Of a stretch of DNA of 59,778 nucleotides, positions 21,279-21,986 are shown one piece after another. The DNA comes from Escherichia phage vB_EcoS_SA80RD. A model generated the notes under the pieces. The model was not told the DNA's origin, ran no database searches, and saw only the letters and a program-made list of their open reading frames with translations. Positions within the stretch are counted from its first letter, which is position 1. The number at the start of each line of letters is the position of its first letter. The DNA is taken from sequence record OL960575.1; one strand, written 5' to 3'. The translations under genes were made by a program, and so were the position numbers.

Positions 21279-21986
21279 ATGTCTGACATGACTCTTTTAC
21301 CTACTAATCTCGGTGGCGACGGTTTCGGTGGTGAAGCTGGTGCGGCTGGTATCGGTGGCGCGATCGGTGGCTTAATTGGTTCCTGGATCGGTAATGGTTG
21401 GGGTGGCAATGGTGGTTGGGGTGGTCGCGGTAACTTCGCTGGTCCGGTGGAAGTGCAAGCTTCTGTTGACACCAACGCAATTCTGCAAGCTATCAACAAC
21501 GGTACTCTTCAGACCATTCAGGGGCAGAACGGTACTAACCTGACTGTTGAGCGCTCCGCTGCTTCTACCTATAACGGTATTACTCAGCAGAACACTCAGA
21601 ACCTACTGGCTTCCGTTCAGGGCTTTGCTGGTCTGAATACGCAAATCCAGGGCGGCACCAGCCAAGTGCTCGCGGCTCTGTGTAGCAACGAAGCAGCTAA
21701 CATTACCCGTTCTTTCCAGGCACAGTTAGAAGCTCAGAAGTGTTGCTGCGAAACCAACCTGAACATCGAGCGTCAAGCAGAAGCTACTCGTGCGCTCCTG
21801 CGCGATCAGCACGCACAAGCGCAAGCTGTTCTGATCTGTGACCTGAAGTCCCAGTTGCAGGAAGCTCGCTTTGCAAACTCTCAGTTGGCACAAACGGCTG
21901 GTCTTACTTGTAAGATCAATCAGGTTGAGCAGTTAGTTAACTTTAAACTGCCAACTCCTCCGACTCCTCCGACTGGCTGCTGCTAA
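21279..21986 (+). CDS. glycine-rich protein with Cys cluster and PTPPTPPTGCC C-terminus
   Basis: ATG 21279 with GGAGA RBS; N-terminal GGDGFGGEAGAAGIGGAIGGLIGSWIGNGWGGNGGWGG tract; function unknown. Confidence 0.5.
   Translation: MSDMTLLPTNLGGDGFGGEAGAAGIGGAIGGLIGSWIGNGWGGNGGWGGRGNFAGPVEVQASVDTNAILQAINNGTLQTIQGQNGTNLTVERSAASTYNGITQQNTQNLLASVQGFAGLNTQIQGGTSQVLAALCSNEAANITRSFQAQLEAQKCCCETNLNIERQAEATRALLRDQHAQAQAVLICDLKSQLQEARFANSQLAQTAGLTCKINQVEQLVNFKLPTPPTPPTGCC

Follow-up and report, generated by a model that had tools for sequence, protein, structure and literature searches.

What does the protein encoded directly after the lateral tail fiber gene of Escherichia phage vB_EcoS_SA80RD do, and does it belong to the fiber at all? 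We addressed this question for the open reading frame (ORF) at positions 21279 to 21986 (+ strand) of a 59,778-nucleotide stretch of DNA (the window; sequence record OL960575.1). The window is the genome of a Seuratvirus (Queuovirinae) and in this region is 97 to 99% identical to the Escherichia phages slur01, SeppeHuegi, and CAjan and to other Seuratvirus members. A first-pass annotation made from the sequence alone had described a glycine-rich protein directly after a tail fiber gene; the ORF was recovered on the same strand with exactly the same coordinates, and the upstream gene carries fiber domains identified by Pfam. We tentatively favor the view that this protein is an abundant, oligomeric, envelope-directed, nonessential accessory protein made in the infected cell, and we consider that it is probably not a part of the tail fiber.

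The ORF is a real gene rather than a chance reading frame, because it matches phrog_9288 over essentially its full length (E = 3.7e-130; residues 1 to 235 on profile positions 1 to 233 of 234), has many homologues, and is under purifying selection (dN/dS of 0.04 versus STP-SP5, 0.10 versus Sasha, and 0.19 versus JenP1). Longer ORFs with a TTG or an upstream ATG start were rejected, since the N-terminal MSDMTLLP is kept family-wide and the upstream DNA aligns as noncoding. The catalogued phage family phrog_9288 has no functional annotation, and the record of phage SA126VB notes pVOG VOG6476. Scans of the target against Pfam, NCBIfam, and PADLOC gave no match, and distant members gave nothing consistent (one marginal PADLOC match, E = 0.011, for a distant family member; Pfam Gly-zipper_Omp in only 3 of 37 members, E = 0.03). 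A word-indexed search found 169 close relatives, and an exhaustive profile search extended these to a distant family of 122 representatives at 50% clustering. The gene and the parts of its product are as follows.

21267-21270, + strand: ribosome-binding site GGAG, 8 nucleotides (nt) before the ATG, read from the sequence; a purine-rich site is present in all relatives
21279-21986, + strand: target coding sequence (CDS), gene 1 of a four-gene cassette; 235 codons and 235 amino acids (aa), from the ORF and the family alignment
21279-21335, + strand: acidic N-terminal tail, aa 1 to 19 (MSDMTLLPT...), with M1, M4, L6, and P8 invariant among close relatives
21336-21443, + strand: glycine-zipper, fusion-peptide-like segment, aa 20 to 55, AGAAGIGGAIGGLIGSWIGNGWGGNGGWGGRGNFAG, from hydrophobicity and a profile match to the influenza hemagglutinin (HA) subunit HA2
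21471-21947, + strand: one continuous predicted alpha-helix, aa 65 to 223, rich in Q, N, and T, with QGFAGLN at aa 114 to 120, from AlphaFold2 (AF2) models
21741-21749, + strand: conserved Cys triplet, C155 to C157, kept in at least 90% of the distant family, as is D188
21951-21983, + strand: Pro/Thr-rich tail ending in GCC, aa 225 to 235, read from the sequence

The translation contains both of the motifs that had drawn attention to the protein, QKCCCETN (residues 153 to 160) and the C-terminal PTPPTPPTGCC. The statement that its first 40 residues are almost entirely Gly was right about the glycine richness and overstated its extent: the rich stretch runs from about residue 12 to residue 55, Gly accounts for 22 of the first 60 residues, and residues 1 to 10 contain none. 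Distant members conserve the acidic N terminus as M-x-[DE]-M-x-L-x-P, the glycine zipper as GAxGALIGSWFGNG, and one to four copies of QGFAGLN spaced about 22 residues apart, together with the Cys triplet, ATRxLI, LCDxK, SQxAQT, and the Pro/Thr-rich end. Among close relatives, C187 of the LICD motif is invariant. The target has 15 acidic and 11 basic residues and contains 8 cysteines.

The head of the protein is membrane seeking. Its sole hydrophobic minimum lies at residues 20 to 38, and with a Hessa insertion energy of +4.55 kcal/mol, the best 19-residue segment of the head does not qualify as a transmembrane (TM) helix of the Sec type. The Wimley-White interfacial energy of the same 19 residues is -5.98 kcal/mol, at least as favorable as those of two viral fusion peptides. 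When the family profile was compared with all PDB sequences, 60 of the 60 best matches were influenza HA or HA2 (E values of 2e-4 to 1e-2). The alignment begins at residue 1 of HA2, that is, at the fusion peptide, and extends to about residue 87, pairing GLFGAIAGFIEGGWxGMxDGWYG with AGLGGAIGGLIGSWFGNGFGGGGWGG and continuing into an N/Q/I-rich helix. The HA2 segment scored 23.1 bits, and since none of 3,000 composition-preserving shuffles reached this score (mean, 3.7 bits; maximum, 17.8 bits), the match is not an effect of composition. The family model gave no match to HIV gp41, and the N-terminal 64 residues compared with PDB sequences returned only linker-like noise and no colicin. From these comparisons, the resemblance to HA2 appears to be real at the level of the motif and is probably convergent rather than homologous.

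Five distant representatives (including P0180, P0161, P0188, and P0239) carry a truly hydrophobic helix, for example, GIWVILLFILLAG, exactly where the target has its glycine-zipper segment, and a copy in a Megasphaera metagenome-assembled genome (MAG) likewise has a true TM helix there. These helices argue that insertion into a bilayer is the conserved role of the segment. Of 163 members, 97% have an N-terminal tail of net negative charge; the 20 residues that follow the segment carry no net charge, and the median Hessa energy is about +5 kcal/mol. This pattern departs from that of a classical N-in signal anchor. The membrane-active N terminus proposed in the first-pass annotation is thus borne out by favorable interfacial partitioning, by the HA2 match, and by the TM helices of distant relatives.

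Structure prediction, which had been suggested as a check, gave a disordered head followed by a single helix in the AF2 monomer. Runs with shallow and deeper alignments agreed that residues 1 to 64 have no confident structure and that residues 65 to 223 form one uninterrupted helix; in the deeper run, mean pLDDT per 10-residue block was 82 to 96 over residues 131 to 220. A straight alpha-helix of this length would span about 24 nm (1.5 Å per residue). Such a helix cannot stand alone, which implies self-association. Family-averaged hydrophobicity has a sharp period of 3.67 residues (11/3, a hendecad) over residues 60 to 130; there was no power at the heptad period of 3.5 anywhere, and no clear register over residues 139 to 226. 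With Foldseek, the model drew no informative hits from BFVD or the PDB, an outcome to be expected of a lone long helix. At the C-terminal end, Cys213 and the terminal Cys pair occur together in 81 cluster representatives and are both missing in 35, with no mixed cases, a pattern that may simply reflect two clades. Distant relatives have longer tails in which a Pro-rich stretch precedes Cys-/His-rich clusters such as GCHNGCHGCC and CCNPCGC. Cys213 and Cys234-235 probably contact one another or a metal.

The target does not travel alone. By blastp among loci, it is always followed by homologues of the same three genes, of about 110 to 128 aa (gene 2), 146 to 200 aa (gene 3), and 72 to 94 aa (gene 4). 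The loci compared came from eiAU (Edwardsiella), vB_YenM_12 and PY100 (Yersinia), four metagenomic sequences (L006, L008, L011, and L013), the Hanriverviruses JakobBernoulli and pSf-1, the Nonagvirus JenP1, and the Sashavirus Sasha. The surroundings of the target in the window are as follows.

18927-21107, + strand: lateral tail fiber gene, context outside the unit (Pfam phage_tail_N, 4.5e-23; Peptidase_S74, 1.8e-12; tail fiber PHROGs)
21125-21144, + strand: intrinsic terminator closing the tail fiber transcript (8-bp stem, 6 GC pairs, UUCG loop, T5 tail)
21215-21220, + strand: -10-like hexamer TATGCT, with a weak -35-like TTGTAA at 21193-21198 and a 16-nt spacer
21228-21244, + strand: conserved inverted repeat GTAACC-AGTT-GGTTAC(A), with the -10 box 7 nt upstream and the ATG 35 nt downstream
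22008-22044, + strand: weak terminator or attenuator between genes 1 and 2 (hairpin of -17.5 kcal/mol, z = -1.3, then UUUU)
22058-22426, + strand: cassette gene 2, 122 aa, phrog_9157, His-rich in its N-terminal part and with a MazG-like hairpin at the C-terminal end
22442-22972, + strand: cassette gene 3, 176 aa, phrog_8329, a conserved partner (dN/dS of 0.05 to 0.11)
22959-23243, + strand: cassette gene 4, 94 aa, phrog_7239, a conserved partner overlapping gene 3 by 14 nt
23465-23486, - strand: terminator hairpin at the convergence with a leftward operon, the end of the rightward unit, from a terminator scan

In Sasha, the cassette adjoins the large terminase gene (terL), and in the myovirus PY100 it is formed by ORF29 to ORF32, among leftward early genes near dam and ssb and about 10 kb from the structural module. 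Because of these varied placements, we regard the cassette as an autonomous module and not as a component of the fiber. The fiber gene of the window encodes a lambda-Stf-like N-terminal domain and ends in a Peptidase_S74 intramolecular chaperone. The suggestion of a tail fiber accessory is therefore one that we set aside, given the positions beside terL and among early genes and given that the fiber has an S74 chaperone of its own. Tfa, gp38, and S74-type chaperones were rejected as identities for the target, which matches no chaperone family and whose cassette lies away from the tail genes in PY100 and Sasha.

The expression signals also set the cassette apart. The terminator after the fiber gene is strong (-14.1 kcal/mol; z = -3.0), and a hairpin occupies the matching place in JenP1, pSf-1, and JakobBernoulli. 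The prediction that terminators flank the gene on both sides thus stood in full upstream; downstream, the element is present with a weaker hairpin, which was missed by a simple terminator scan; the records of SA126VB and Sasha have a terminator annotated at this position. In PY100 and eiAU, bidirectional terminators end the cassette. A hexamer of the form TAT[AGT]CT or CATACT occurs at the position matching TATGCT in JenP1, Sasha, pSf-1, JakobBernoulli, and eiAU, where the full element reads TTGGCA-17-TATTCT. A sigma-70 scan did not call the site of the window, which scores 8/12 and falls below the threshold, so the promoter is one that we infer; no shared promoter motif was found elsewhere in the window. 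With a conserved upstream element of its own and flanking terminators, the target fits the independently expressed unit that had been proposed.

Between this hexamer and the start codon lies an inverted repeat that matches nothing else in the window. The same element precedes the homologue at nine loci from six lineages, with the consensus GTAAC-N6-7-GTT(A/G)C about 35 nt before the ATG (for example, L016 5768-5784, L023 2287-2303, L024 2280-2296, and L025 1045-1061); in the fetched loci, the match lies upstream of the homologue, and the STP-SP5 locus (L022) has one extra match elsewhere. Lineages that lack this repeat have other, unrelated short hairpins at the same place, and an Rfam scan of the 5' region of the target gave no match. 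In the consensus fold of six pairs, the stem varies by a single G.U wobble and a single compensatory change. So little variation does not discriminate between an mRNA hairpin and a palindromic operator, and the element could be either a 5'-terminal (stabilizer) hairpin of the mRNA or an operator.

Codon usage is exceptional. The codon adaptation index (CAI) of the target relative to E. coli is 0.53; in this genome, only the major capsid protein (0.566) and one other gene exceed it. The fiber gene has 0.25 and genes 2 to 5 have 0.28 to 0.33. The eiAU homologue has a CAI of 0.47 versus 0.18 to 0.31 for its neighbors, the homologues of L006 and L008 also top their neighbors, and that of PY100 is in the upper range among its neighbors. 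Because of this codon adaptation and the terminator after gene 1, the sequence suggests a very high output of gene 1 and a lower output of genes 2 to 4.

The conservation of the gene contrasts with the frequency of its disruption in viable phages, as the following alleles illustrate.

SeppeHuegi: stop codon at residue 83 (Q83)
KurtStettler (L002 3127-4659): deletion fusing the fiber S74 domain to target residue 20
WildeMaa (L018 3926-4285): residues 1 to 90 kept; gene 2 and probably most of gene 3 lost, judged from annotated CDS sizes
SHIN8 (L019 3614-4222): fiber N terminus fused to the last 72 target residues
JakobBernoulli: broken copy
vaffelhjerte (T5-like): broken copy
STP-SP5 (L022, about 2330-2460): frameshift in the GGN-rich tract, with the annotated CDS starting downstream of it
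Metagenomic P0121: target fused to gene 3
Henu8-type phages: only the first 80 to 87 nt kept

The STP-SP5 frameshift may be genuine and mark a site prone to slippage, or it may be an artifact of sequencing through a G-rich run. Other isolates obtained on K-12, such as CAjan, JenP1, aaroes, and KarlJaspers, retain an intact gene; it is therefore dispensable in the laboratory and is not counterselected everywhere. Deletions recur here: one breakpoint falls in the fiber gene or in the target, the second falls in the target or in gene 3, and in-frame chimeras result. The tail fiber family phrog_4128 matches the C terminus of gene 3 of the window, presumably through chimeras in its seed. The label "putative lateral tail fiber chaperone," given in KurtStettler and copied in PJ16, belongs to a deletion fusion.

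We found no match to the cassette in 5,426 complete E. coli genomes, which fits a restriction to virulent phages. A one-genome-per-species scan with a narrow pattern (CCCxT[QK]..., by which the CCCETN clade is missed) returned a single locus, that of the Megasphaera MAG. This locus (L021 3700-5800) is prophage-like and lies a few genes after small, holin-like TM proteins and a possible endolysin; the upstream set includes a coiled-coil protein with a signal- or lipoprotein-like N terminus, and the gene after the homologue appears, from sequence inspection only, to have a C1q/BclA-like domain. About 19 MG0656xx records ("Campylobacter phage A123," A118, E6, and others) are approximately 97% identical to Hanrivervirus coliphages over the gene or contain only its first 80 to 87 nt, and the Campylobacter jejuni host labels on these phage records look doubtful.

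Taken together, these observations would be accounted for as follows. The target would head a self-contained cassette and be its most strongly expressed gene; the cassette would have its own promoter-like box, 5' hairpin, strong ribosome-binding site, and a leaky terminator after gene 1. The glycine-zipper segment would bind to or insert into a lipid bilayer, and the 24-nm helix would self-associate, with hendecad-type periodicity in its first half. In large numbers, the protein might then sit anchored in the cytoplasmic membrane of the host, or coat it, and change the envelope of the infected cell. The most probable task would be the exclusion of the DNA of competing phages at entry or the control of envelope integrity or lysis timing; either would matter in nature and not on a K-12 lawn. 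The sequence analysis itself shows the anatomy of the gene and its cassette, the expression signals, purifying selection, dispensability, and a membrane-seeking head; it is the cellular location, topology, and oligomerization of the protein and, above all, its specific task that we infer.

Several points weigh against this reading. The partner genes give no clue to function. Gene 2 has a weak PRA-PH match and weak PDB matches to 2p06 and 5ie9, a faint MazG-like signal; gene 3 has no Pfam domain, its profile search against the PDB was unproductive, and its homologue search returned only unnamed proteins; gene 4 has no recognizable relatives beyond its family. The N-terminal tail lacks the positive charges of a Sec-inserted anchor, and insertion from the cytoplasm is thus not assured. 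A profile-profile comparison with HA2 in hhalign reached a probability of only 16% over 15 columns. The proposed exclusion or lysis-control task would rest on analogy and on the pattern of natural conservation and laboratory loss. A literature search by gene and family identifiers found no experiment or paper on the family, and the papers on 9g, eiAU, and P400 and that of Korf et al. contain no relevant virion data. The virion proteome of vB-EcoS-95 comprises 16 proteins, but this phage is not among the 60 (of 66) matched records listed. Capsid-level codon adaptation would also suit a virion protein, and in Seuratvirus, Nonagvirus, Hanrivervirus, Eiauvirus, and L008, the cassette lies 3' of tail fiber genes, as does a decayed remnant in the T5-like Epseptimavirus.

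The last two points make a dispensable virion appendage the main rival, although we consider it unlikely. The protein would be a coiled-coil fiber, whisker, or decoration, perhaps aiding the lateral fibers as fibritin does in T4, attached through one conserved end and stabilized by disulfides after release. In addition to its neighborhood and codon usage, the length of the helix and the Cys and Pro/Thr-rich features would suit such a part, and the fiber gene and the target are often deleted together. Hoc, Soc, and fibritin are likewise nonessential. However, the cassette is far from structural genes in PY100 and Sasha, the target shares its transcript with genes for three small, apparently nonstructural proteins, and a strong terminator and a promoter-like element of its own separate it from the fiber gene. 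The true TM helices of distant relatives would be unusual for an external fiber, and the helix lacks heptad periodicity. PY100 ORF29 is also still labeled hypothetical in a record whose authors performed virion proteomics, a weak point.

A more ambitious version of the envelope-directed protein is a fusogen-like one, in which a fusion peptide of the HA2 type on a long, self-associating helix, made in capsid-like amounts, would fuse, bridge, or vesiculate host membranes. We think this rather improbable. If true, such a protein might connect the inner membrane with the outer one or reseal the envelope without the help of spanins, and the other cassette proteins would serve as regulators. Bacterial viruses would then have acquired, by convergence, a counterpart of class I fusion machinery.

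It is more doubtful still that the protein is a cytoplasmic scaffold or condensate former, possibly membrane anchored, that organizes sites of phage replication or assembly. The low-complexity head with GGW, RGN, and F motifs, the long helix, and the high expression would be in keeping with this role. The Cys-/His-rich tails of distant members, including that of the Megasphaera MAG, suggest an intracellular, metal-binding end over disulfides; Megasphaera is a strict anaerobe. The TM helices of distant members point instead to the bilayer, and the charge balance of the target gives it no nucleic-acid-binding character.

An internal, ejected pilot or channel protein like H of phiX174, in which a glycine-zipper head in the membrane and a helical bundle lined with Q and N would aid the passage of DNA through the envelope, is very unlikely. 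The Gly-zipper head, the long Q/N/T-rich helix, and the 11-residue periodicity would all match. The earlier suggestion of a membrane-targeting injection protein is weakened by the nonsense, frameshift, and deletion alleles of viable phages. Moreover, H scores -17 bits against the family profile, expression at this level is unexpected for a protein with about 10 copies per virion, and in siphoviruses the tape measure protein already does the pilot job. Least probable of all is the bacteriocin-like factor also proposed in the first-pass annotation, a colicin- or microcin-like protein acting on neighboring cells through its head, since, although it would be abundant and released at lysis without a secretion signal and its disordered Gly/Trp-rich head recalls colicin translocation domains and class II microcins, searches of the protein and its neighbors (Pfam and NCBIfam) found no double-glycine leader, C39-ABC exporter, immunity gene, or cytotoxic domain, and the family profile scored only 5 bits with ColV, -8 with MccE492, and -40 with the N terminus of colicin E9.

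Several neighboring features deserve mention. In gene 2, the His-rich stretch GEHHHEHEKEEYKHAHSYARDHEH precedes the short MazG-like helical hairpin; the family does not retain the second acidic motif of MazG enzymes, so gene 2 may be noncatalytic. Gene 4 is followed by a 67-aa, Cys-/Pro-rich ORF at 23255-23458 (+ strand; MCGNTNRCCLGSP...AACNCKTF...) that matches phrog_25697; other Seuratvirus records have a gene of similar size at this position, and eiAU, PY100, and Sasha have no fifth gene. Upstream, a 333-aa ORF at 17837-18838 (- strand) lies between the J-like tail tip gene and the lateral fiber gene and matches phrog_1265 (E = 1.6e-120), whose label is "membrane protein; moron/host takeover." In SeppeHuegi, WildeMaa, and SHIN8, the corresponding position holds only a 77-aa gene, labeled lipoprotein in SHIN8. 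Because gene content differs among relatives, this is a variable receptor or exclusion locus.

The family is widespread, occurring in Seuratvirus, Nonagvirus, Hanrivervirus, Tlsvirus, Sashavirus, and PY100-type phages, with remnants in T5-like phages; in all, 177 phage records gave a match. Strong purifying selection, apparent high expression, and repeated laboratory loss mark a trait that is important in natural hosts or communities and invisible in plaque assays. The natural nonsense, fusion, and deletion alleles of SeppeHuegi, KurtStettler, WildeMaa, SHIN8, and JakobBernoulli make the question of its function directly testable. Two misleading-looking database labels can also be corrected. 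Besides the "lateral tail fiber chaperone" of the deletion fusion, the "putative sugar-binding protein" of the BASEL Hanriverviruses may stem from the same hemagglutinin match; in that case the label misreads the match, which involves the fusion subunit rather than the receptor-binding domain. Should the head truly be a fusion-peptide-like membrane effector, the family would be a new class of envelope-acting phage protein.

Comparison with known systems helps to place the protein. Like influenza HA2, it has a glycine-rich, aromatic-containing fusion-peptide motif of comparable interfacial hydrophobicity that is followed by an N/Q/I-rich helix. In HA2, proteolytic priming exposes the fusion peptide at a new N terminus; in the target, the motif lies inside the chain, from residue 20 onward. 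The target also has neither a heptad coiled coil nor a second heptad region, with AF2 predicting a single uninterrupted helix, and its C terminus is the PTPPTPPTGCC tail in place of a membrane anchor. With H of phiX174, it shares a hydrophobic Gly-zipper N terminus and a long Q/N-rich helix with 11-residue repeats, but the two have no sequence similarity, H is essential and the target is dispensable, and the phage that carries the target is tailed and has a tape measure protein.

The i-spanin Rz of the lambda Rz/Rz1 pair resembles the target in its membrane-targeting N terminus, long helical body, and cysteines; the cysteines of spanins are functionally important, and spanins are nonessential under standard laboratory conditions. 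The N-terminal tail of the target is acidic and not basic, there is no embedded or overlapping o-spanin lipoprotein gene and no lipobox partner, and the family profile scores lambda Rz at only 3.6 bits. An identity as i-spanin was rejected, since holin, i-spanin, and o-spanin genes, also annotated in SeppeHuegi, lie 37 kb away at 58808-59769 and include a canonical spanin pair.

T4 Imm, Sp, and RI and HK97 gp15 differ from the target in that no Pfam, PHROG, or NCBIfam link connects them with it and in that the target is much longer, with its 24-nm helix, Cys triplet, and three conserved partner genes. What these small to medium-sized proteins have in common is an accessory role, one weakly hydrophobic N-terminal segment, and retention in nature despite being dispensable or readily lost in the laboratory. 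By analogy, membrane proteins of superinfection exclusion or lysis control would be the functional class that we favor for the target.

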